IMG/VR virus record: IMGVR_UViG_3300042356_001602
DNA from: a virus
Taxonomy: Duplodnaviria; Caudoviricetes
Length of the DNA: 64,000 nt
Direction: 5' to 3' (one strand)
How positions within the stretch are numbered: the first letter of the stretch is position 1; each line of letters opens with the position of its first letter. A model generated the notes under the pieces. It did no database searches, had not been told where the DNA came from, and saw only the letters and a list, made by a program, of their open reading frames with translations. Shown in pieces: positions 38,406 through 54,845 of this stretch. The position numbers and the translations under genes were made by a program.

Positions 38406-39017
38406 CTATGACTCTTCCTGTACATAACAATAGTAAGGGGGACCAGTATAGGGGTCAAATTTTGCAGAAACCGCAATAGCTTTAAGGCAGAAAGTTTTAG
38501 CCTGAGCGATGTTAGGAATGCCCTTTTTAGGAAAGAGGATAGACATAGCACCTAGAGCGTAGGAAGCGCCTGTACCGAGCGCGTAGAGGCCACTGACGTC
38601 AGATGTCCAAGAGTAGTCTCCATCCACAACATAGATGGAGCCATTAATGGAACAGATGACAGTAGAGCCCTGCTCAGCTATGTGGCTTGACTCATCTCTT
38701 TCAGGAGCAGCATAACCTTGAACTTCAAATGTAGCTCTTAAAGATGGTATAAACTTACTAGTAAAGAACTGGTCCAACTTAGAATCTGTTGTGCCTGGTG
38801 GTGGTACAGGTGGCTGAAAGACGTGATGCAGGATATTTATAGCTCTAACATCTCCAGCAGCACCTAAAAGGTATCTACCATTAACTGCTACCTTAGAAGA
38901 GTTTTTTCCTAAAGTTGTTATTTGAGAGGCGAAACCACCATCGTCCATAGAAGATATTCTGGAATCTGTACAAATAATACTGAAACCATCACCTTGAACT
39001 CCAATTATTGTAGTCAT
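38406..39017 (-). CDS. HslV/proteasome-beta-like Ntn-hydrolase (Thr protease)
   Basis: N-terminal MTTIIG, TDSR, K, GAAGD and GTGASYALGAM motifs. Confidence 0.85.
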   Translation of the reverse strand: MTTIIGVQGDGFSIICTDSRISSMDDGGFASQITTLGKNSSKVAVNGRYLLGAAGDVRAINILHHVFQPPVPPPGTTDSKLDQFFTSKFIPSLRATFEVQGYAAPERDESSHIAEQGSTVICSINGSIYVVDGDYSWTSDVSGLYALGTGASYALGAMSILFPKKGIPNIAQAKTFCLKAIAVSAKFDPYTGPPYYCYVQEES

Positions 39018-42211: not shown

Positions 42212-43453
42212 TCAAGACGGAAGAACAGAATTCTGAATAATATTAGAGAACATCTGTCTACACTGAATGTAAGAAGATGGTTTAATATTGATTCTATGAG
42301 AATTCAAGAATTTAACAGAATCATCTAAAGCTTGAGTTAAAGTACGGTTTTCAGATAAGAAGCGCTTAGCAATAAATTTTTGATAAGCTTCTAGTTCAGA
42401 AAATTCGTGAAGATGAACACAATTGTCGGAGCAATAATCACTGTGGCAATCATCCTCATCAGAATCAGTTTCGTGAATAACATAATCATGAGAATCACAA
42501 AATTCATGAATTAAGTTATCTCTGAGGTTGTTTATATGCTGGTAATAGAACTCAGTTTCAGTGAAAGTATTCCAAGATAATTTAGAAATTTCAGAAAGAG
42601 GAACTTGTTCCCAGCATTTGAAGAAAGGACTGTGCCATTGAGAAGGCAAGTTAGAAGGAAGACTATATAAATTATGATCTCGCAACCAATTCATATTAGG
42701 CATAGTTTGAGGATTTAAATATTTTTCAAACTGTTCATACTTTTTACAATGCAAAAAGAAAGATATACTTTCAGTAATATCGAAATTAAAACCACTGTTC
42801 CAGATCCAGTCGTAAGCAGAAGCAATTACCCCAGAAAGATCTTTAGGGTATTTCTCAATGTCTTCCATGTTACTAAAGAAAGGTCTGCACAAAGTGCCAT
42901 TAGAATAAAAGTTGTACAAAGGAGGAGAGTAAATAGGTTGGTCCAATGAAGCTAAAGAGTTAGATGTAAAAAACATCTTAACAGAAACTAATCTCATGTC
43001 TTCTGGATTGTACATAGCAATATAGACTTGCCAGGGAATAGGCAGGTAGTATTCCGATGTACCAGTTTGACTACTTATTTGATCTCTGTAATCATTGTAA
43101 GTTGATACCACTTTATGACACGGAGGACGTTCAAATAGTATAATTCCAGGTGACAAATGTCTAACTCCTGGGAATAAAAGAGATTCATCTTCAGAAAAAG
43201 AACGATGAGAAATAGCAGATTTAAGTTCTTTCATTGCATTTTCTGCAACAGTTATATTAAAGCTTTGAAAAGACTCAAGATTTTGAATTTTCATTTCCCG
43301 AGAAACAGTAGAAGACTGATCAGATATCTTTAAGAAATAATCAGAGACAGAATAAGAAGAATAACGACCAGCAAGAGCTAAAGGACTATAGTTGAATTCA
43401 ATATACTCCGAAGAAGATTGTTCATTATATATAAAATCGGCAGGTGTTAACAT
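42212..43453 (-). CDS. Prokaryotic E2-like protein (Prok-E2_D/PRTRC-B-like)
   Basis: FERPP, LPIPWQVY, P.YSPPLYNFYSNGTLC motif. Confidence 0.6.
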   Translation of the reverse strand: MLTPADFIYNEQSSSEYIEFNYSPLALAGRYSSYSVSDYFLKISDQSSTVSREMKIQNLESFQSFNITVAENAMKELKSAISHRSFSEDESLLFPGVRHLSPGIILFERPPCHKVVSTYNDYRDQISSQTGTSEYYLPIPWQVYIAMYNPEDMRLVSVKMFFTSNSLASLDQPIYSPPLYNFYSNGTLCRPFFSNMEDIEKYPKDLSGVIASAYDWIWNSGFNFDITESISFFLHCKKYEQFEKYLNPQTMPNMNWLRDHNLYSLPSNLPSQWHSPFFKCWEQVPLSEISKLSWNTFTETEFYYQHINNLRDNLIHEFCDSHDYVIHETDSDEDDCHSDYCSDNCVHLHEFSELEAYQKFIAKRFLSENRTLTQALDDSVKFLNSHRINIKPSSYIQCRQMFSNIIQNSVLPS

Positions 43454-43456
43454 GAT

Positions 43457-44596
43457 TTAAATATTCTCCGATTGTTTAATATAAGGAGCGATCTCAGAAT
43501 GATCAAACTCGTTTTGTAAATTGTCAGGGTCAAAATTCAACATAGCCTTGTATATTGAAGCAACAATATAAGGGTTAGAAATATAATCAAGAATAAGAGA
43601 ACTTTGATAATTTTTTATAACCACTTTAAAACTTGTTTCGTTTACAACTGAAGGATATTGTCCATAGTTATGAGTCAAGATTCTTGCTATTCTATGCCAG
43701 GGAGCAGTTGCATTTTGGTGAGATTGAGATATTAAAATAAAAGAATCTAAATTAGATTTATTAAAATGATGTCTTAGTGTTGGATGGTAAGAAGTTTTTT
43801 CTTTAGTGTAAGTGATGTAGCCAATGTGCTCTTGTAAAGAAATATTAGACAAAAGATACAAAAGACTCTTGTAATACTTTGCAGTGTTATGTCTTTTGTA
43901 ATAGTTAGAAATAATAGCAGCACTCTTTTTATTTTGTGATATTTTTTCAACTATAGGAGCAAAATATTCTAGGTTTTGCATAGCACAAGAAAGATCGCAA
44001 TTCCATCCACCAAAATAAGAATTAAAAGTATGATTATAAATATCAGTTATAGAAGAACCATTTTCAATCATCTGGCTAGTTGGTAAAGAATCTTGTCCCA
44101 TACAAATATTGCCAGAACTAGAATTAGGAAGATAGCAAGGAACTAACTTATCATCAAAAGATTGAAGGGGACCATCGTTAAAGTATAAATGAAAAACAAA
44201 AGAACTACTAAAAGAACCTGATTGATACTCAGTAGATATAACTGAAACGGTCCATGGAATCCACATCTTAACTGATTGTAAATATTTAGGAGTAGTCCTA
44301 GGGCGATAAGAAGTTGCAGTAGAAAAGTCTATTTCTATCTCAAAAGGAGGGCGCTCTATAATATGAGTCTTGCCGTCAGGAGATGAATACCTAACGGCCA
44401 AAGGCAATAGGGAATAATCTCTAGTAAAAGCAGATTTAGAACGATCTTCTATTACTTTATTAGTATCTAAAAAACTAACCTGGTAATTAATCCAAAGATC
44501 ATTGTCAACAACTCTGGGAGTTGCTTGATGGGTAAGATTAAATATATTCTGTGGGGTATACAAAGAATAATTATAGTCATAATATTCAGGATCCAT
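43457..44596 (-). CDS. Second E2-like paralogue
   Basis: IERPP, WIPWTV, PCYLPNSSSGNICMG, FNSYF..WNCDL. Confidence 0.6.
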   Translation of the reverse strand: MDPEYYDYNYSLYTPQNIFNLTHQATPRVVDNDLWINYQVSFLDTNKVIEDRSKSAFTRDYSLLPLAVRYSSPDGKTHIIERPPFEIEIDFSTATSYRPRTTPKYLQSVKMWIPWTVSVISTEYQSGSFSSSFVFHLYFNDGPLQSFDDKLVPCYLPNSSSGNICMGQDSLPTSQMIENGSSITDIYNHTFNSYFGGWNCDLSCAMQNLEYFAPIVEKISQNKKSAAIISNYYKRHNTAKYYKSLLYLLSNISLQEHIGYITYTKEKTSYHPTLRHHFNKSNLDSFILISQSHQNATAPWHRIARILTHNYGQYPSVVNETSFKVVIKNYQSSLILDYISNPYIVASIYKAMLNFDPDNLQNEFDHSEIAPYIKQSENI

Positions 44597-46042: not shown

Positions 46043-46412
46043 ATAACTTTTCGTCAGCCAGGCTCTCAATGGCTGAGGCAACTCCTGGACTTTCTGCAGC
46101 CAATAGACCACCGGCTCCTTCTTTCATGGCTTCAAGCATTTGTTTTCTGCTGTGAGCTATAGTGTCCATAAATATTTTTTGGGATTCAGGAGTAGCAAAT
46201 TTAATTTGGGCTATAAGGCCTTCCATGTTTACTGCTTGCTCGCCAAAACCAAGAATTAAAGTAGCAATCTGCTTCTCTAGATTCTCAATAGACTCATCAA
46301 ACTCTTTAAATCTTTCGTCTATTTTATTAGACATAGATATAATAAGTTGCTGAGTTTGTTCTCTGAGAAGGTCTATATCGCTTATGCCTTCGAATAATGA
46401 ATCATCTGACAT
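46023..46412 (-). CDS. Coiled-coil hypothetical protein
   Basis: ATG overlaps the upstream stop. Confidence 0.65.
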   Translation of the reverse strand: MSDDSLFEGISDIDLLREQTQQLIISMSNKIDERFKEFDESIENLEKQIATLILGFGEQAVNMEGLIAQIKFATPESQKIFMDTIAHSRKQMLEAMKEGAGGLLAAESPGVASAIESLADEKLFDGTDQ

Positions 46413-47029
46413 TATGCGTCGTACCATTCTGTGTTGTTAGTGACATGGGAAGCTAAAGAAAGATCAAGCAAATAAGAAATGCTTACGATATCTTGACGAC
46501 TTACTTTAATAGAGTCAACAGACAGAGGTGATTTCATATCAGGAATAAATGCACCACTGTCAGACTTGCGAGCTTTAAAATGACCAGCTTTCCAGATGAA
46601 CGCATTAGTATCTACGTTGTCTCCAGACTGCCAATACTGACATTTAAAGATTCTACTGATTGATTGACCAGCAGCAGTCATAGTTCCACCATAAGAAACA
46701 TATGCTTCAGGTGTAGCAAGGCCAAGTCTTTCATTAGCAGGAAAGTTAAGAGCAGCAGTTCCATTGGTTATAGCTTTAAGGTAAGCTGCAAAGTCAATAG
46801 CATCAACAAAACAGTTAGTATTACTTTCAAGCTTTCCAGAAGCATTGGTCTTACCAATGTCAATGGAAAATTTCATACCCTGAAACCAAGGTCGAATGGA
46901 AATAAAACCACTTTGGGATTTAGATTTAAACCATTTCTTATAAAGTGTATTAGTGTATTTTGGTTTATCATCTTGGTTATCAGAATCTAGTGATTCTAAG
47001 AACTCTTCTACATTTTCTTCAATTGACAT
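46412..47029 (-). CDS. Hypothetical protein
   Basis: AAAAGG RBS. Confidence 0.75.
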   Translation of the reverse strand: MSIEENVEEFLESLDSDNQDDKPKYTNTLYKKWFKSKSQSGFISIRPWFQGMKFSIDIGKTNASGKLESNTNCFVDAIDFAAYLKAITNGTAALNFPANERLGLATPEAYVSYGGTMTAAGQSISRIFKCQYWQSGDNVDTNAFIWKAGHFKARKSDSGAFIPDMKSPLSVDSIKVSRQDIVSISYLLDLSLASHVTNNTEWYDA

Positions 47030-47051: not shown

Positions 47052-48650
47052 TTAGACTTTCAAGTCCCAAGAAGGGGCTTGAGAAGATTTTTGTTTACCA
47101 AGTATATCATCTATGTCATTATACTGGAAGCTAGAAGCCCAGTCCCAGTTGTCATAAGCATAACGATATAAGTCTCTAATCATTTCGCGTTCTTTATTCC
47201 AAAGAATATTACGCATAAATGGAGCAGCTTTTACTACATCAGCAGTATTGAGCATGCGGTGTTCAGCAGAAACAACATTGAATTTTGTTTCTTTAACTAA
47301 TGATTTAATTTCTGCACCAGTAAAGTACTTGGTTGCTTGAGCTATAGCAGAGTAATCATAAGTGTCTTCAGGAAGATAGATCTTAATAATTTCAATTCGT
47401 TCTTCAAATGATGGCAAGCCAACAAAGAAGATCTTATCGAAGCGTTCTGCACGAAGCATTTCTGGTTTAAGATGGTTTAGCTGGTTAGCAGCACACATTA
47501 AGAAAACATCGTTAGGAAGTTCTTGAAGTCCAGTAAGAAATTCACCATGAACACGATCGGTAGTGCCACCGTCTACTTGAGACGAGCTTTGACCACCAGA
47601 CATATCTCGACCAAACTCGTCAATCCATACGCAAAGCGGAGCCATGACTTTAATTTGCTGAAAGACTGTACGCATGTTTTGTTCTGATTGACCGATAAAA
47701 GAATTCATGACTTGACTTACACCAGTTCGGGCAAGGTCAAGACCAAGAGCACTAGCAGTTGCCTCACATATAGCAGACTTACCAGTGCCGGGAATGCCAA
47801 CAGTTAGCATGCGACGAATAGGCTGAATGCCAAACTTCTCAGCTTCTTCAGGATTATTCCAGAAGTAAAGATTGCGCATAATAACATCTTTAATATTATC
47901 AAGGCCACCAATTTGATCAAAAGTAATCTTAGGTTTTATTATTTCAAGGATTCCGTTTTTCTTAACATTAGCCATTTTAGCTTCATAGATGTAAGAAGAA
48001 CTAATTGTTCCATGTTCAAGTACTGACATAAGACAGAGATTGATAAATTTAGATTCTGTAAGACCAAGTCCAGCATTGGAAATTTCTTTGGCTTTAGCAG
48101 CATCTAATACTTCGCCATTAGTAGAAGTATGTATGTGGTTGAGAATTTCGTTTAGCTCTTGAAGAGTGGGGTACATATCTTCATGAACATAAAATAAATG
48201 CGCAATTTCTTCTGGAACATCAGAAGCGCTCAAGACTATGAGCTGAAGTGGCATTAAAGAAATGTCATCAGATTTAAAAGATTTTCTGTAATCAGAATGC
48301 AGGGAAGAGACTAAGCCTGAAAATTCATTAGCAAATGCTTTAGGATCTCCAATTAAATTGTAAATAAAAGATTTAGGAAGATCTTTAACAGCAGAAGAAT
48401 TAAGCATGTAGTCAAAAGACAATGACAAATCAGTAGTTGTCTTGATTATTGGTGGAGCACCGTCTTCAGGAGCAGGTATAGAAACAAGAACTGGTTTCCA
48501 TTGGAAGTTTATGTTTTGAGAAAATCCATCTTTTGAAATTGTAAAGTATGTACGCTTATCAAAGGATGTAATATTTTCTTCGAGTCTGTAAGGGTCGGTT
48601 GTTTTAATCCAAATAGCGGGAATTCCCAATTGGATTTGCTGAAAGAGCAT
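47052..48650 (-). CDS. AAA+ ATPase (Ycf46/Cdc48-like)
   Basis: TFDQIGGLDNIK, GIPGTGKS, WIDEFGR, AANQ, RAERFD, FTGAEI. Confidence 0.92.
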   Translation of the reverse strand: MLFQQIQLGIPAIWIKTTDPYRLEENITSFDKRTYFTISKDGFSQNINFQWKPVLVSIPAPEDGAPPIIKTTTDLSLSFDYMLNSSAVKDLPKSFIYNLIGDPKAFANEFSGLVSSLHSDYRKSFKSDDISLMPLQLIVLSASDVPEEIAHLFYVHEDMYPTLQELNEILNHIHTSTNGEVLDAAKAKEISNAGLGLTESKFINLCLMSVLEHGTISSSYIYEAKMANVKKNGILEIIKPKITFDQIGGLDNIKDVIMRNLYFWNNPEEAEKFGIQPIRRMLTVGIPGTGKSAICEATASALGLDLARTGVSQVMNSFIGQSEQNMRTVFQQIKVMAPLCVWIDEFGRDMSGGQSSSQVDGGTTDRVHGEFLTGLQELPNDVFLMCAANQLNHLKPEMLRAERFDKIFFVGLPSFEERIEIIKIYLPEDTYDYSAIAQATKYFTGAEIKSLVKETKFNVVSAEHRMLNTADVVKAAPFMRNILWNKEREMIRDLYRYAYDNWDWASSFQYNDIDDILGKQKSSQAPSWDLKV

Positions 48651-48698
48651 ATGTACTCCAGGTATCAAAATAATAATCTAATGGCTTTATAAAAAATA

Positions 48699-48761
48699 GT
48701 GGGGGGGACTACTCTGTTAAGAGTCTAATAAACTATCAAGTAGTTTAATAGTCCCCCCCAC
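48699..48761 (-). terminator. Terminator-like element with a 13-bp stem enclosing two inner hairpins
   Basis: GTGGGGGGGACTA / TAGTCCCCCCCAC; inner CTCT-GTTA-AGAG and AACTA-TCAAG-TAGTT; U-tract follows on the minus strand. Confidence 0.75.
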
Positions 48762-48780
48762 GATCATGTTAGGAAAGGTG

Positions 48781-49032
48781 TTAGCCCTTTTCGCCTGCAC
48801 GGCGATGGAACTCAACGTTGTCGTTTGACTGAATGACATAGTTCTCGTCAAGCTTGTCTTTGCCCTTGTAAGCAATAGCATCTGAGCTAATGCCCCAGAG
48901 CTTGCTGAACTGCTCACGGACCTGTCCAACAGTCTTTCCTGAGACTGGTGCTGGTTGGTTGTATACACCGTAACGAACGTTGGCTACGCCTTCGCCTGTG
49001 CTGGTGTTTGTTTGGTTGGAATTCATTTCCAT
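48781..49032 (-). CDS. Ubiquitin-like beta-grasp protein ending AGEKG
   Basis: GKTVGQVR..W.I...A........DENYVI..ND.VEF.RRAGEKG; adjacent to the E1. Confidence 0.85.
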   Translation of the reverse strand: MEMNSNQTNTSTGEGVANVRYGVYNQPAPVSGKTVGQVREQFSKLWGISSDAIAYKGKDKLDENYVIQSNDNVEFHRRAGEKG

Positions 49033-49053
49033 GTTATTATCTCCGTTTATTAA

Positions 49054-49803
49054 TTATAGGTAAGCGGGTTGCTGTTGATTGACCATACGATTATATGGTT
49101 GGGACATGCCAAGACCTAGATCAAAGTAGATCTCTGACTGTTCTGGATTTTGTTCGGAAACAATAGTATATTGAATACGACCAAGAATCATTGCAGCAAC
49201 AGCCATATTGGTGGCAAGTATTTGGGTGCCACCTTCTACTTCGGCTCGTTCTTGACAAGACATTTCACCTGGATTGCGATCAGGTGGATTTTGGTATTCT
49301 GGGTGTGTTTCTACTGGATGAGCAGTAACGTCTACGCCATCACGACGACGATAATGATAGATGCTACCAAAAAGGTTATCATCGTTTCCACCAGTAAAAA
49401 CATCTACGTTGTTAAGTTTTGAAGCTGCGTCAAATAAAATTTTACGAGCAGAAAAGTTATCAACAACAGCAAGAACGATATCGCCTTCAGCGAGCAACTT
49501 AGTTGCTCTAATCTTGCTAGACTCTTCATCTGTTTCAGGATGTTCATCAGAAACAACCCATTTAGGAATAGGTATAACAAGAGTCTGATTAAATTGCTTA
49601 GTCAGCTCAAGAGCTTTAACTGAAGCTTTGTTGCCGACTTGAGTGAATGATTGACGCTCTAAGTTTCTTTGCTCATAGCTGTCACCATCAACGATTATCA
49701 AAGCAGATCCAGGATATTTCCATTCAAGAAGTCTAACAACTCCTTCTGCTAACCAGGTGCCAATGCCACCGGCACCAACTAAAACTACTCTTTTAGGTTC
49801 CAT
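49054..49803 (-). CDS. ThiF/E1-like activating enzyme
   Basis: VVLVGAGGIG, VDGD.YE..NL.RQ, NKA, AVVDN..AR, SC..R. Confidence 0.92.
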   Translation of the reverse strand: MEPKRVVLVGAGGIGTWLAEGVVRLLEWKYPGSALIIVDGDSYEQRNLERQSFTQVGNKASVKALELTKQFNQTLVIPIPKWVVSDEHPETDEESSKIRATKLLAEGDIVLAVVDNFSARKILFDAASKLNNVDVFTGGNDDNLFGSIYHYRRRDGVDVTAHPVETHPEYQNPPDRNPGEMSCQERAEVEGGTQILATNMAVAAMILGRIQYTIVSEQNPEQSEIYFDLGLGMSQPYNRMVNQQQPAYL

Positions 49804-49813
49804 AAATTATTCC

Positions 49814-51466
49814 TTAATCGTAACTAGACATAGTATTGCTGAGTTCATAAAGAGTAAAATCTTTACATTCACCAATAGGGGTTTCAATCTTTTGTTTGTT
49901 TTTTGCAAAATTAACAATTGAATTTAAATAAGGTTTGCAGTTGCGAGAATAATAAAATTCGCAATCAACACAAGCAGCTTTATTATCATACACATTGTAT
50001 GGATGACTTTGATCGAATTCAATTACATCATCGTAATAGACAGTTTTTTCACAAGTGCATTTTTCAACTGTGTACAAATGAACATCACAACAAACTGTTC
50101 TTGTTTCGTCAAATCCTTCATAGAAGTAACCATCAAGAACTTCTAAAGTTGGACCAGAATTAGTAGTCAGCAATGATGTATGCAATGAGCTATCATCATC
50201 GTTATAATCTACTTCTTTAATTCGCATAAGCAAATCTTGATCTTGAGCATCTTTAGTCCAAAGATAATAAGTTATATTAGAATCAAATTTTCTGTCAGTT
50301 AAATACTTTTTAGCGTTGTCAATTATCTCACCATAAGAGTCTGACATAAGGGCAAAGCATAAATCGCAAGTGTCGCAATAAAAACTCTTAGGGACATAAG
50401 CAAGAACTTCAGCTTGACATGATGGGCATTCAGATCCAGCAGAATCTACTTCACCAATAACAAGATAAGGTTCATCGTCCTTAGGGTCTGGATACTCTTG
50501 AAGTCGAGAATCTCCGTTACGAATACCAAGAGGAGTAAAGGCCTGCGGTAGAGTCTGTGCCTGCGTTGTAGCCTGCGCTGTAGACGCCTGTGCCACCTGA
50601 GTAACCGAACCCCCCGCTATAGGGGGGAGTGCTTTTTTTACTTTAGCAGTCCATCCTACGACTTCAGGATCGGGTTCTTTTGTGAAAACATAATCTTCAA
50701 ATACATCTTCTGGTTTAAGGGTGTAAGTGTGACCAGCCATTTGCATCTCAATGTGATATTGAGTTGCGCCATTGTTGACAGACTTTTGCCATCCATAAGT
50801 AATATGAATGCCATCGAAGTCTGCTTGGTCTGCATGATCTGTGCCAGATGCATATGCAGCCATGTCAGGATGACTGTGAACAGAACCAACAATCAAAACA
50901 TCTTCTGGCTTTTGATCTACGATACTATCTGCATCATACTTGCAATGAACAGAAGTGTTTACTTGGTCTGGGACAAGAACGCCCCAACCCTGAGAAGTAC
51001 CTTCATGCTGAGGATCAAATGTCAAAAGAACAATTGACTCAGTACCATGTTGAGTGTGAACGAGTCTAAAGAACTCGTCTAGTTTATCGATGATAACCCG
51101 AGGAATTGCTGGAAGACTATACTCAGCTGTTTCACGAGTAGCTTCAAAGTCATACAAGTCTTCATCAACAATTTCAGAAACAGTTCTTCCAACAAAGTTG
51201 TTAACAACCTTAACAATCTTAGTAGAAAGATCAGTTACGTAAGAAACGTTTTTGGTTGTAATGCCTTTGTCGTAAACATTAGTTTCGACTTTGCGGTCAG
51301 TAGCAACATTGCAAATCAGGTAGTAAATATTGAAACCAAGAAATTCAATTTCTTCTTCAATGTTAGGTCTGTTTGCCATAAAGCATGGAACTCCGGATTT
51401 AGTCCAGAAGTAATTTAAGTCTTCCAACTTAACATTCATATAAGTAATATTATCTATTTGGTCCAT
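49814..51466 (-). CDS. JAB/JAMM metallopeptidase (PRTRC-A-like) with Cys-rich C-terminus
   Basis: E..HSHPDMAAYASGTD (E-HxH-x7-S-x2-D); CPSC..CDTC and CVDC..C motifs. Confidence 0.88.
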   Translation of the reverse strand: MDQIDNITYMNVKLEDLNYFWTKSGVPCFMANRPNIEEEIEFLGFNIYYLICNVATDRKVETNVYDKGITTKNVSYVTDLSTKIVKVVNNFVGRTVSEIVDEDLYDFEATRETAEYSLPAIPRVIIDKLDEFFRLVHTQHGTESIVLLTFDPQHEGTSQGWGVLVPDQVNTSVHCKYDADSIVDQKPEDVLIVGSVHSHPDMAAYASGTDHADQADFDGIHITYGWQKSVNNGATQYHIEMQMAGHTYTLKPEDVFEDYVFTKEPDPEVVGWTAKVKKALPPIAGGSVTQVAQASTAQATTQAQTLPQAFTPLGIRNGDSRLQEYPDPKDDEPYLVIGEVDSAGSECPSCQAEVLAYVPKSFYCDTCDLCFALMSDSYGEIIDNAKKYLTDRKFDSNITYYLWTKDAQDQDLLMRIKEVDYNDDDSSLHTSLLTTNSGPTLEVLDGYFYEGFDETRTVCCDVHLYTVEKCTCEKTVYYDDVIEFDQSHPYNVYDNKAACVDCEFYYSRNCKPYLNSIVNFAKNKQKIETPIGECKDFTLYELSNTMSSYD

Positions 51467-51498
51467 AAAATCTCCAGATTTAGGGTTTCTTTATTTTG

Positions 51499-53331
51499 TT
51501 AAAAAGGTTCGGTGCTAGGCACATTGTTAGATTGTTTGTGAGTTCCAATAGATTTAGAAAAAGTATGAACAGCTTGTTTAATTGCAACTTTAACATACTC
51601 TTCTTGGAATGGCTGATAATAAGCAACCATGTTTCCGTCAGAGTCTTCGGTAACATTGCCAAGACATTCAGCACAACACTGGGTTACAGTAATGGAAGTG
51701 TCTTCTGGCAATATAGTTGGAGTGCATGATCCAAATTGATCAGTATTATTCTTTAACAATCCGCAAGGACAAGTAAAGTGCTGAGCATTACATGGTTGAC
51801 AAAGGGTAATAACCTTAGGAGCTAAAGTCAAATCAGGTGTAGCAACCATAGCTTTTGACATAGGGTAACTTTCTCCCCAACCATTAGTTTTAATAGCAAC
51901 TGCTTGACATATGTAGCAGTTAGTAGGAGTTAATTCATTGTCTGCTATAAAATGAGGTTGGCAAGTAGGGCAAATTACTTCTTCAGAACCAGGAAGGTGA
52001 AGAAGTTGTTTAAACATAATTGATTTTGAAGAATCAGAATGACCATTTACGCCTACCCAATTTGAACAAGTATGGCATTGTGCAACGGTATCTTTAACTT
52101 TATGATAATATTCACAATCAAGTTCTGAATATATTATGTTATCATCTTCTTTATGATAATAACCATCAACAGATTCAATGAAAACATAATAGTCACCTAA
52201 GCAACAATTACATACATCATTGCCATTAATGTCTCCAATAGGTTCTTCATCACTTGTATTATACTGTTCATCGCAGCAAATACATACCCAATCATTTTCA
52301 TCATCTTCATCATTATTGTTAGAAAATAAGTTTGGAGCTAAAACTGCAGAGCCGTTTTTTTCTCTGTTAGCAACAGTAAAGTCATAAGGATTATCTTTAG
52401 CCTCATGAGTATAGTTTACCGGTGAAGAAGCAAAAGCTTTTTTAAACATATCAGCAATGTTTACATCAGTAAAAGATAGATCAGGACGAGATATAATATT
52501 ATACATCTTAGGAATGTTAGTATCAGAGTAGTATGCTTGGTAATTACCTAGCATAGCCATAGCAAGAGTTAGCTCTTGACCCTTGTCATCATGTTGACCT
52601 TGATCGTCCATGTCTTTAACTTTAACAGGAATCCAAAGCTCTTCATTTAAGGTCCAGTTAAAACCTTCTTCTTCAGACTTTTGTTGCCAAAGCTGAGGAT
52701 TAGTAATATATTCAGGTTTTCCCTTAGAAGCATAGAACCGAGGGCCATCAGTCTCTGACATGTTGGCGTCATTGTAAGTCTCTACTCCTGAGCAGCGCTC
52801 AATGAAACGAGAAACTTTTTCATTAAAAGGAAGAGAAGACCAATCGTCTTTGTGGTATAAGCAAATCCAACCTACAGCATTTCCTCGGTAACCTTTGCAG
52901 TTAATGTTAGGAAGGTTAACGTGATAAAGAACGTTATTGGGAGAGGTAATTGGATATGGAGAGTAAAACATCTTAGCACCTAAAAGGTTGCCGTTTTCAA
53001 AGTCTCCAATAACAATACGATAAGGCTGGGCTACGTAATATGTCTTAGCATTCTTATCGCCTTCGTGAGCTCCCCAGTTGATGTGATACGTACCGGGGGC
53101 ATGTTGTGTCACAACCTGGGTCTGAGGGCCAGCAGAACGGATTGCAAGCACGCCTGTGCCATTTAGAGGAAGTAGACCAGTATCAAAGGACGCAAACTGA
53201 GAGAAGTTATTGTAAAAAGATACAATATCTTTATCAGTTACGTGGTCTAAGTTAAAAGATTTAACAGAAGACCGGATGGCATAAGTGCCTTGATCGTTCT
53301 TGACCAAAGAGTAGTTATATGAATCAGTCAT
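51499..53331 (-). CDS. Prokaryotic E2-like protein with C-terminal multi-zinc-finger region
   Basis: VAQPYRIV, LYHVNLPNINC..GWICL; many CxxC motifs after residue 350. Confidence 0.65.
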   Translation of the reverse strand: MTDSYNYSLVKNDQGTYAIRSSVKSFNLDHVTDKDIVSFYNNFSQFASFDTGLLPLNGTGVLAIRSAGPQTQVVTQHAPGTYHINWGAHEGDKNAKTYYVAQPYRIVIGDFENGNLLGAKMFYSPYPITSPNNVLYHVNLPNINCKGYRGNAVGWICLYHKDDWSSLPFNEKVSRFIERCSGVETYNDANMSETDGPRFYASKGKPEYITNPQLWQQKSEEEGFNWTLNEELWIPVKVKDMDDQGQHDDKGQELTLAMAMLGNYQAYYSDTNIPKMYNIISRPDLSFTDVNIADMFKKAFASSPVNYTHEAKDNPYDFTVANREKNGSAVLAPNLFSNNNDEDDENDWVCICCDEQYNTSDEEPIGDINGNDVCNCCLGDYYVFIESVDGYYHKEDDNIIYSELDCEYYHKVKDTVAQCHTCSNWVGVNGHSDSSKSIMFKQLLHLPGSEEVICPTCQPHFIADNELTPTNCYICQAVAIKTNGWGESYPMSKAMVATPDLTLAPKVITLCQPCNAQHFTCPCGLLKNNTDQFGSCTPTILPEDTSITVTQCCAECLGNVTEDSDGNMVAYYQPFQEEYVKVAIKQAVHTFSKSIGTHKQSNNVPSTEPF

Positions 53332-53728
53332 TATATTTTCCATTCGCAATGTCATCTAGCTCTAAATCTACATCCATAGAAAAATCACCAAAGGTCATAG
53401 CTAACCAGTTGGGATCTTGTTCTGCAGTTGTAATTAGTTGAAGCTTAGGAAGTATTTTATTTTTAGCATCGATAAGATCAGCAACCCGATCTAAAGCTTT
53501 AGCAACTTTTTTTATCTCTTCTTTATCTTCACTAATGTTTAAGATAAAACGTATGATAGGCATATCAGATAAAGTAAAGTGATCAACAATTTTATCTATT
53601 CTTTCATCTATATGAGCAAGATCAGATTGAAGTTGTTTTTTAATTCCTTTAGCTGCATCGAGTCTAAAGTAAAAGTTATCTATAGGAGCGTTAGCACTGA
53701 TGGGAATTTTTTCTGGATAAGAAGTCAT
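53324..53728 (-). CDS. Hypothetical protein
   Basis: AAGGA RBS before ATG 53728. Confidence 0.7.
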   Translation of the reverse strand: MTSYPEKIPISANAPIDNFYFRLDAAKGIKKQLQSDLAHIDERIDKIVDHFTLSDMPIIRFILNISEDKEEIKKVAKALDRVADLIDAKNKILPKLQLITTAEQDPNWLAMTFGDFSMDVDLELDDIANGKYND

Positions 53729-53738
53729 ATAATCCTTA

Positions 53739-54410
53739 TTAGTAGATCTTAAAGCCAAGAGATTCTCTAATGGACTGAAAGGATTGATTGATATAAGCGT
53801 TAGAAGAGAAAGAACGAACATCGATATTAGAATAATCTTTATCGATAATCGCTTTCATAGGAACTCTGTTGATTTGTTCACACAACTTTTCATAAATATC
53901 AATGTTGCGATTTATAGAATGAGTCATAACTTTATGCATAGAACCAAAGTATATGCGAATAAAGGAATCGTTTAAAGTAATATTCAAATGTTTAGCAGCA
54001 AGCTCAAAAGACTTTGTATTGTCTGCAGTTATTATTGCATTTAAAAATTCTATAATAGCAAAACGTTTTGCAATTGATTCTTCAAGTATGTCAGCATACA
54101 ATTCGCTAGCATACTTGCCATCAGATAATTTATTTAAAGCGTTAAAAATTGACCGATTTAAAGATTCAGATTCAAAAATAAAACGGTTTGAAACTTCATA
54201 AAATGAAGTAATTACGCCAGTTCTAAGCATGAAGCCACCAGAACCGACTCCTTTGTTCTTAGCATAATCTTTGCTAGATTCGATAAGAGCTTCTAGTTCT
54301 TCGTCTTTTCCAAGACTAGTATTTGAAAATACATTATGGAAAGAAGGAGCTTGAGCTTGAGCTGATGGTTCTTGAAAAAGATCATCATCGTTGTCAGAGT
54401 AATGAGACAT
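53739..54410 (-). CDS. Hypothetical protein
   Basis: Long ORF in the operon. Confidence 0.7.
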   Translation of the reverse strand: MSHYSDNDDDLFQEPSAQAQAPSFHNVFSNTSLGKDEELEALIESSKDYAKNKGVGSGGFMLRTGVITSFYEVSNRFIFESESLNRSIFNALNKLSDGKYASELYADILEESIAKRFAIIEFLNAIITADNTKSFELAAKHLNITLNDSFIRIYFGSMHKVMTHSINRNIDIYEKLCEQINRVPMKAIIDKDYSNIDVRSFSSNAYINQSFQSIRESLGFKIY

Positions 54411-54575: not shown

Positions 54576-54845
54576 TCATTGTGCAGTCTGTTTCTGGGGT
54601 TGTTCTTTTACAATTTGGTGCAAAGCTTGTATGCCAAGCTTGGTTATAGTATAACCTTTATCTGACTTTATAGCAAGCTGCTGTCGAACAAGAACATCAA
54701 GTGAGCGCATAACAGAACTTAATCTTTTATTATACTTTGTAGGAGATAAAGCCATAAGATCATTTTCGGTAGACCATTTATGGCCCCTGATTTTAAGATA
54801 ACACAATGCTACATGAGTAGGTGAATTACGCTTAATGTTAATCAT
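54576..54845 (-). CDS. Winged-helix-like protein
   Basis: GGAG RBS; RSLDVLVRQQLA..GY.IT..G pattern. Confidence 0.6.
   Translation of the reverse strand: MINIKRNSPTHVALCYLKIRGHKWSTENDLMALSPTKYNKRLSSVMRSLDVLVRQQLAIKSDKGYTITKLGIQALHQIVKEQPQKQTAQ

Follow-up and report, generated by a model that had tools for sequence, protein, structure and literature searches.

The virus record IMGVR_UViG_3300042356_001602 (Duplodnaviria; Caudoviricetes), of which a stretch of 64,000 nucleotides was analyzed here as a whole (hereafter, the window), likely encodes a conjugation system for a ubiquitin-like protein (Ubl) that resembles the bacterial operons of the 6d/Prok-E2_D type, as judged from sequence comparisons and structural models. 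The source is a phage of ~200 kb from lake water, and the window consists of phage DNA, in which genes for DnaE-type polymerase, primase, helicase, and Nol-like carbamoyltransferase are also present. At positions 47052-53355, five intact open reading frames (ORFs) lie head to tail on the minus strand and encode an E2-like protein (E2a), a JAB/JAMM metallopeptidase, a ThiF-type E1, a Ubl, and an AAA+ ATPase. An initial annotation, made from the sequence alone, had described contiguous and co-oriented genes for an E2-like protein, a JAB peptidase, a ThiF/E1 protein, a Ubl, and a Cdc48-like AAA+ ATPase, and all five are indeed present and intact.

The arrangement of these genes is conserved in related phages, a survey of which had been proposed with the initial annotation. 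The same order, p223-p165-E2a-JAB-E1-Ubl-AAA-p205-p134-p92-p214-p193, is found in nine related contigs, and the cassette order is kept in ~47 contigs in the wider set, which is far beyond chance. The phage is most closely related to IMG/VR contigs that measure 202-210 kb and bear direct terminal repeats. Identity among related contigs is 75-98% for E1, Ubl, AAA, and p205 (82-95% for Ubl and 83-98% for E1), and E2a and JAB are 55-62% identical in more distant relatives. The spread of the cassette was assessed by scanning viral contigs with an E1 profile, and the resulting 71 loci were scored with our own hidden Markov models (HMMs). These loci fall into ~47 tier-1 loci, with an E1 identity of at least 51% and the full array including the AAA+ ATPase, and ~24 tier-2 loci, with an E1 identity of 31-39%.

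The E1 and JAB genes encode proteins that score above the cut-offs of their Pfam families. The E1 (249 aa; 49054-49803, minus strand) matches ThiF (PF00899) with 48.9 bits against a cut-off of 28.1 (E 6e-13) and consists of a single adenylation domain with an invariant Rossmann loop (G10-A-G-G-I-G15). The residues R50, K59, D115, and C183 are invariant from the window to gp216 of a cultured Bacillus phage (28% identity), and C183, the only cysteine of the protein, is located in the loop P-G-E-M-S-C-x-E-R. By motif position, R50, K59, and D115 appear to correspond to R73, K86, and D130 of MoeB, and C183 to C184 of ThiF. The top NCBIfam match is PRTRC_ThiF, which aligns over the full length with 41 bits against a cut-off of 144.75. 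A profile of six E1 proteins matched nothing among the PDB sequences, and the single E1 sequence gave only weak matches there, to a ThiF-type chain (9egc, 0.013), UBA5 (0.017), and Cap2 (0.14). The JAB peptidase (550 aa; 49814-51466, minus strand) matches Prok-JAB (PF14464) with 26.7 bits against a Pfam cut-off of 25. Its JAMM motif, E143 and H197-S-H199-x7-S207-x2-D210, is complete and every residue of it is invariant in the alignment, which bears out the pattern E..HSH..S..D read earlier from the sequence. The protein comprises a conserved N-terminal domain (residues 1-125), the JAMM core (130-260), and a Cys-rich C-terminal half, and it has a weak match to NCBIfam PRTRC_A (17.7 bits against a cut-off of 101.8).

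The Ubl gene (48781-49032, minus strand) encodes a protein of 83 aa. Its AlphaFold2 (AF2) model (predicted local distance difference test, pLDDT, 80.5) has the beta-beta-alpha-beta-beta-beta arrangement of a beta-grasp fold, followed by a free tail. In Foldseek searches with this model, ubiquitin variants, NEDD8, and SUMO rank at the top in PDB (probability 1.0, template modeling score, TM, 0.55-0.66), and MoaD/ThiS and ‘ubiquitin-like’ clusters are matched in AFDB. In every close relative the protein ends in ...EFHRRAGEKG directly before the stop codon, so that both the beta-grasp fold and the terminal AGEKG claimed in the initial annotation find support. The Ubls of distant relatives keep EF-x-R/K-x-x-G-x-K-G, and among 54 distinct phage Ubls, 43 terminate precisely with GxKG, the remainder having short extensions or tandem copies. 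A Pfam search with six Ubls at E ≤ 10 yielded no useful match, including none to the Pfam ubiquitin or Prok_Ub families.

E2a (51499-53331, minus strand) combines a UBC/Prok-E2-like domain with a Cys-rich array. Alignment of homologues places its start at the ATG at 53331, while the ORF itself is open from 53355, and the residue numbers given here (C165, N150, 1-345, and 350-618) count from the longer ORF. Residues 1-345 define a family of their own that comprises 207 clusters at 50% identity and has the motif P149-N150-x-N152 ... G162-W163-x-C165-L-Y167. Both C165 and N150 are kept in all 149 family representatives; the other cysteines are not invariant in this set (C153 in 87% and C188 in 40%), and this conservation makes C165 a well supported candidate for the catalytic Cys. 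The AF2 model (pLDDT 77) contains a helix, a beta-meander, a long loop bearing the conserved N/C residues, and then further helices, which is a UBC-type topology. Against AFDB, the model matches a ‘PRTRC system protein B’ cluster (1.7e-5) and a ‘UBC core domain-containing protein’ cluster (4.6e-5), with a TM by hit of 0.63, and against solved chains ten different E2 enzymes recur, with 116-128 aligned residues spanning the whole E2 core. The nearest Atlas cluster of E2a is viral, and 13% of its members carry Prok-E2_D. The initial annotation depended on a UBC fold and a catalytic Cys in the E2-like proteins; one family-invariant Cys was found, the fold matches are to UBC/Prok-E2 proteins, and a UBC-like fold is likely on the basis of the model. 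Residues 350-618 contain about nine CxxC pairs, and this array has no significant mutual similarity to the C-terminal Cys array of the JAB peptidase.

Two additional genes downstream, E2c (43457-44596) and E2b (42212-43453), both on the minus strand, are probably E2-like paralogues by their motifs. E2b contains the motifs FERPP, PIPW, and N181-x4-G-x2-C189, with C189 and N181 present in 34/34 sequences, and E2c contains ERPP, IPW, and LPN-x5-G-N-I-C165, with C165 present in 32/33. The two proteins are homologous to each other (hhalign 97.5%). E2b matches Prok-E2_D (PF14460) below the threshold (E 0.037; 14.2 bits against a cut-off of 25), and its relatives reach 18-21 bits. The E2a protein, in turn, matches the E2b-like gene of the distant locus L010 at 1.5e-4. 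Both E2b and E2c accompany the cassette in ~47 related phage contigs, and E2c is syntenic in the tier-1 loci.

The AAA+ ATPase (47052-48650, minus strand; start at the ATG at 48650 by alignment of homologues) matches Pfam AAA (PF00004, 1e-22) and AAA_lid_3, and its best PDB matches are to the D2 ring of VAT/Cdc48 (1.8e-53). The Walker A (GIPGTGKS) and Walker B (WIDEF) motifs, the pore loop (F-I-G), and RAERFD (second region of homology, with the Arg fingers) are invariant. These features assign the predicted protein to the classical clade (Cdc48/VAT/PAN) as a single-ring ATPase, with a distinctive N-domain of ~235 aa that has no family assignment. Orthology with Cdc48 itself was ruled out by the single ring and a score of 108 bits against the TIGR01243 cut-off of 802. 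The gene is located 0.3-2.5 kb after the Ubl gene in all of the ~47 tier-1 phage loci, notwithstanding insertions. Directly 3' of the Ubl stop codon, a terminator-like hairpin with a G7...C7 stem and a T-run (48691-48761, minus strand) has a folding energy of -35.8 kcal/mol (z -3.75), and five relatives retain its G-run, C-run, and T-run but differ in the loop sequence. Because this conserved hairpin and T-run lie between the Ubl and AAA+ genes, E2a-JAB-E1-Ubl and AAA-p205-... probably form two transcription units. A search for RNA sequencing runs returned none. The five-gene operon of the initial annotation thus holds in its contiguity and common orientation, but it appears to be divided after the Ubl gene. 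A conserved motif, ATAAAGCC-N-TTAGATTATT, is located between the hairpin and the AAA+ start, with a second near-copy at 54746-54764 (plus strand), and may be a phage promoter.

Beyond the close relatives, the tier-2 loci encode an E2b/c-like giant protein, JAB, E1, and Ubl, and lack the AAA+ ATPase, E2a, and p205. The tier-2 Ubls (L070-L091, e.g., L070:10723-11196) have a Rho-N/SAP-like domain fused at the N-terminus and end in ...LEFLKPAGKKG. Some of them have 1-5 extra residues, and one (L083:10707-11666) is a tandem di-Ubl. In L070, a second ThiF-like gene and a gene for a multisubunit RNA polymerase beta-prime-like protein come after the cassette. Linkage of E2-JAB-E1-Ubl extends from 98% to ~26% E1 identity, across phage contigs and contigs of metagenome-assembled genomes (MAGs), and these four genes, with the shared Ubl C-terminus EF..AG.KG, form the universal core across distant phages and bacterial MAG contigs.

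Approximately 25 contigs from prokaryote assemblies, labelled as Candidate Phyla Radiation (CPR), Planctomycetota, and other phyla, contain the four genes as E2-JAB-E1-Ubl or Ubl-E2-JAB-E1, their Ubls end in the same way, and in bacterial loci the E2a profile matches the E2 gene beside JAB at 1e-9 to 4e-4. In L100:6455-10780 (Bryobacteraceae MAG, DATJMA010000154.1), a proteasomal-type AAA of the Mpa/PAN type, with Prot_ATP_ID_OB domains, is placed directly before Ubl-E2-JAB-E1, and in L099 (labelled Saccharibacteria) another AAA precedes E2-E2-JAB-E1-Ubl. A 22-kb contig that was binned with a Cyclobacteriaceae MAG (L094, JBDNFI010000049.1) carries the full tier-1 array. A near-identical Ubl (protein P0306) is encoded on a 193-kb contig labelled Flavobacterium sp. 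These two contigs are probably mis-binned phage contigs, and their labels offer a lead to Bacteroidota as the hosts, which to our knowledge have no Pup-proteasome.

Searches with the E1 by tblastn also reach the cultured Bacillus phages vB_BceM_WH1 and Edson. In WH1, gp216 is an E1 with the same Cys loop, gp215 is a homologue of the JAB peptidase (hhalign 93.7%), and gp214 is a probable E2, given a weak alignment (E 5.7e-4) to the E2b profile that covers the Asn...Cys motif. The protein gp211 (L023:781-1680; LC597490 178788-179687), annotated as ‘virion structural protein’, is composed of five tandem Ubl repeats of ~57 aa that each end in ...IEFKVQAGTKG, with a 15-aa tail after the last. Its repeat structure identifies gp211 as a predicted polyubiquitin-like precursor in a cultured phage, and poly-Ubl is also found in the phages Edson and vB_BauM_KLEB27-3. 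The Bacillus phage protein gp213 has no similarity to E2a or E2b. A literature search for WH1 and its cassette proteins found no paper on either.

Several neighboring genes belong to the conserved region or bear on its interpretation. Immediately upstream, p165 (53324-53821, minus strand) encodes a small protein, and the 3' end of this gene overlaps the start of E2a. It is located upstream of E2a in every tier-1 cassette, its synteny extends to the distant loci L012-L014 (by tblastn/HMM), and scans of Pfam, NCBIfam, PHROGs, and PADLOC-type libraries gave no family match. Together with p165, the downstream paralogues E2b and E2c extend the unit beyond the five genes to which the initial annotation had confined it. 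On the other side, p205 (46412-47029, minus strand) always comes next after the AAA+ gene and is retained in L010 and L011, two distant cassettes; the sole lead to its function is a weak similarity to Whirly-like proteins, which bind single-stranded DNA (ssDNA), with an Atlas feature score of 0.84. Farther downstream, a putative N-terminal nucleophile (Ntn) hydrolase of the proteasome-beta/BPH/HslV type (203 aa; 38406-39017, minus strand) begins with M-T-T-I-I-G. It matches Pfam Proteasome below the threshold (16.6 bits against 22.4, residues 2-23 only), and its best PDB match is BPH (5ovs), which is weak (E 0.058). All of the complete relatives (4/4) have the gene, at a distance of 8-13 kb from the cassette. 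Adjacency does not support this peptidase as a member of the cassette, as it was never less than 10 kb from the E1 gene in the scanned loci, and a link between the two is no more than possible.

The surroundings of the cassette in the window are genes for replication, nucleotide metabolism, and tRNAs, and the source phage carries many tRNAs and DNA-modification genes. In distant loci, the cassette adjoins genes for dCMP deaminase, RNase H, or RNA polymerase. The 6.3-kb region had no megablast match in a phage collection, and E2a had no tblastn match in the same collection. E2a, JAB, and Ubl matched nothing in PHROGs or PADLOC; in these libraries the E1 matched CBASS ‘E1-E2’ models weakly and no others, and the AAA+ ATPase matched IetA.

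From the genes, folds, catalytic motifs, conservation, and linkage observed directly, we infer a series of chemical steps, a coupling to the AAA+ ATPase, and a class of targets. The small, homodimer-type E1 would adenylate the C-terminal Gly83 of the Ubl and take it up as a thioester on C183. The Ubl would then be passed to the invariant Cys of an E2-like enzyme, i.e., C165 in the case of E2a and, probably, C189 in E2b and C165 in E2c. No E3 would be involved; instead, the three E2 paralogues, which differ in their variable C-terminal regions (a zinc-type Cys array in E2a), may select the proteins to be modified and attach the Ubl to their lysines. The JAMM peptidase may remove or edit the tag, and may mature the Ubl in those relatives with a C-terminal extension or tandem poly-Ubl. 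The Cdc48/VAT-like AAA+ ATPase, probably encoded in a separate transcription unit, would most likely unfold or extract tagged proteins. The main reason to regard this link to an unfoldase as functional is that a different AAA subfamily is independently linked to homologous cassettes (L100 and L099). As for targets, we lean toward proteins handled in takeover or replication, and not virion parts. An extension of this scheme, in which the three target-specific E2s tag host or phage proteins, the AAA+ ATPase unfolds them, and the BPH-like Ntn peptidase destroys them, seems improbable; if true, such a tag-unfold-degrade pathway would amount to a viral counterpart of the ubiquitin-proteasome system that works in a bacterium.

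Several observations weigh against a conjugation cascade coupled to an unfoldase. Solved E2 structures match the E2a model weakly (Z 2.9-3.5), a Foldseek search of this model against PDB returned no match at E ≤ 0.001, and E2a has no Pfam match. The profile link between E2a and E2b is also weak (E 0.0015, probability 16%), and the 249-aa E1 has no recognizable E2-docking domain. The AAA+ gene is missing from the ~24 distant phage cassettes and is separated from the Ubl gene by a terminator in the clade of this phage, and its adjacency could be inherited gene order. It is accordingly a serious possibility, if short of an even chance, that the Ubl core is genuine, whereas the AAA+ ATPase, p205, and the Ntn peptidase are unrelated neighbors retained through common descent, with the AAA+ protein acting, for example, as a replication or assembly ATPase. 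The conservation of the terminator, the absence of both AAA+ and p205 from tier-2 cassettes, the Whirly-like lead for p205, and the distance of the peptidase from the E1 gene would all fit such a neighborhood. Common descent explains less readily why the AAA+ gene has stayed within 0.3-2.5 kb of the Ubl gene across all ~47 tier-1 loci despite insertions, or why, in L100 and L099, AAA proteins of unrelated subfamilies accompany homologous cassettes.

Other explanations accept the gene set but give it a different task. The roles suggested with the initial annotation, namely tagging of host or phage proteins and action as a decoy or deubiquitinase against host Ubl defense, are all hypothetical. 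The kit might serve counter-defense only and neutralize host Ubl immunity (Bil, CBASS Cap2, or 6d-type), with the JAB peptidase stripping host tags and the Ubl, E1, and E2 proteins acting as decoys or competitors. Host Bil is reported to tag the phage central tail fiber (10.1101/2023.09.04.556158), and homologous cassettes occur in bacterial MAG contigs, so that phage and host versions could meet. A decoy, however, needs no complete cascade, yet the E1, three E2s, JAB, and Ubl are strongly constrained and the cysteines of E1, E2a, E2b, and E2c are all retained, which leaves a slim chance for counter-defense as the only role. A function in virion assembly, in which the Ubl is attached to structural proteins or itself serves as an assembly chaperone, as proposed for the TAPI Ubl and TAPK JAB of lambda, is likewise unlikely. 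The pairing of Ubl and JAB in lambdoid tail assembly has been described (PMC1779556), and the WH1 poly-Ubl gp211 bears the annotation of a virion structural protein, which is unverified; but lambda has no E1 or E2, and the cassette is embedded among genes for replication, nucleotide metabolism, and tRNAs, or in distant loci near dCMP deaminase, RNase H, and RNA polymerase. Finally, the Ubl and E1 might act as a sulfur carrier pair, as ThiS/ThiF or TtuB/TtuC do, and supply a thiocarboxylate for thio-modification of tRNA, DNA, or a cofactor. The minimal ThiF/MoeB-like domain of the E1, the MoaD/ThiS clusters among the AFDB matches of the Ubl, and the many tRNAs and DNA-modification genes of the phage would suit this role. 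Nevertheless, it is highly improbable: no rhodanese, cysteine desulfurase, or thiolase partner was found among the eight cassette-region and ten neighboring proteins scanned, sulfur transfer offers no role for the JAMM peptidase and the E2-like proteins with an invariant Cys, to which the pair is strictly linked, and among solved structures the Ubl best matches ubiquitin, NEDD8, and SUMO.

Conjugation of the Ubl by a phage-encoded cascade is the preferred interpretation, and it would alter the current picture of these systems. Bacterial Ubl conjugation is currently understood as an anti-phage weapon of the host (Bil, CBASS Cap2, and probably Bub). If the interpretation is true, the presence of such a cascade in the core genome of a large jumbo-phage clade would mean that the virus side tags proteins too, as eukaryotic viruses do. 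Other phage groups also carry related versions of the cassette. We know of no function established for the 6d/PRTRC module since 2006, and the module would gain an experimentally reachable setting. The cultured Bacillus cereus jumbo phages with a related gene set (vB_BceM_WH1, Edson, and KLEB27-3) would make the conjugates, the targets, and the role of the peptidase directly testable. Moreover, the recurrent linkage to AAA+ unfoldases hints at tag-directed unfolding beyond archaea, actinobacteria, and eukaryotes. A phage-encoded E1-E2-JAB-Ubl cascade was not found described in jumbo-phage reviews or in papers on Bil and Bub, although absence there is no proof of absence in print.

Among known systems, the predicted proteins place the cassette in the 6d/Prok-E2_D type, which includes PRTRC, and not with Bil or Bub. 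The 6d type corresponds to the Pfam set of Prok-E2_D, Prok-JAB, and ThiF, including the Ubl module of PRTRC cassettes. As defined, the operon type 6d comprises genes for a separate Ubl with a C-terminal Gly, a JAB protein with an extra N-terminal domain, an E1-like protein, and an E2-like protein (Iyer, Burroughs, and Aravind, 2006; PMC1779556). The phage cassette shares the four separate genes, the conserved N-terminal domain of JAB, a small E1 without rhodanese, a Ubl ending in Gly, and an E2 that retains the Cys without the strict HPN His and has sub-threshold matches to Prok-E2_D. The top NCBIfam matches (PRTRC_ThiF and PRTRC_A) and the AFDB fold match to PRTRC protein B point in the same direction. 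All NCBIfam PRTRC scores, for TIGR03735/03736 and partner families, are nevertheless far below their cut-offs, and no ParB-like match was found among the eight cassette proteins, to which the search was confined. The PRTRC-type gene set of the initial annotation can therefore be kept as a likeness to PRTRC/6d operons and not as membership in PRTRC. Compared with 6d, the phage version forms a conserved block in the core of lytic-type jumbo phage genomes and has three E2 paralogues, long Cys arrays on E2a and JAB, and an adjoining Cdc48-like AAA+ ATPase.

Bil (BilABCD; Types I and II, of which Type II is ‘6C’) is a bacterial ISG15-like anti-phage system (PMC10557695; 10.1101/2023.09.04.556158). 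It resembles the phage cassette in its Ubl, E2, JAB deubiquitinase, and E1 with thioester chemistry, which is predicted here, as well as in the lack of an E3, in an E2 thought to choose the target, and in a JAB that can pre-process the Ubl. However, the Bil E1 is a large tandem protein (IAD-AAD-CYS; PMC11601596), whereas the phage E1 is a 249-aa single adenylation domain; Bil is host-borne and directed against phages, whereas the present cassette is phage-borne, and no sequence-family link between the two was found. Bub (6E; PMC11601596) likewise has an E1, an E2, and a Ubl, with multi-Ubl precursors in some members. In contrast to the invariant Cys and separate genes of the phage cassette, Bub is characterized by oxyester chemistry without a catalytic Cys, fused proteins, and a DUF6527 serine protease, and a Pfam scan of the cassette proteins gave no match to DUF6527.

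The archaeal SAMP/UbaA/JAMM system with Cdc48 or the PAN-proteasome is similar in its small tag ending in Gly, minimal E1, JAMM peptidase, and classical-clade AAA+ ATPase, but SAMP conjugation has no E2, whereas the phage cassette has E2-like proteins. The actinobacterial Pup-Mpa-proteasome system has an AAA+ unfoldase in common with the phage cassette, although Pup is not a beta-grasp protein. In common with these systems, the phage has a proteasome-beta-like gene, located elsewhere in its genome. Its AAA+ ATPase differs in having a single ring and an N-domain of no assigned family, and coupling to the peptidase and degradation are hypothetical for the phage. Within phages, a parallel is TAPI (Ubl) and TAPK (JAB and NlpC) of lambda and T1 (PMC1779556), which also combine a phage Ubl bearing a conserved terminal Gly with a JAB. 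In lambda, these proteins are accompanied by neither an E1 nor an E2, and the Ubl is a domain of an assembly protein, whereas the Ubl of the present cassette is predicted to be a free tag available for conjugation.

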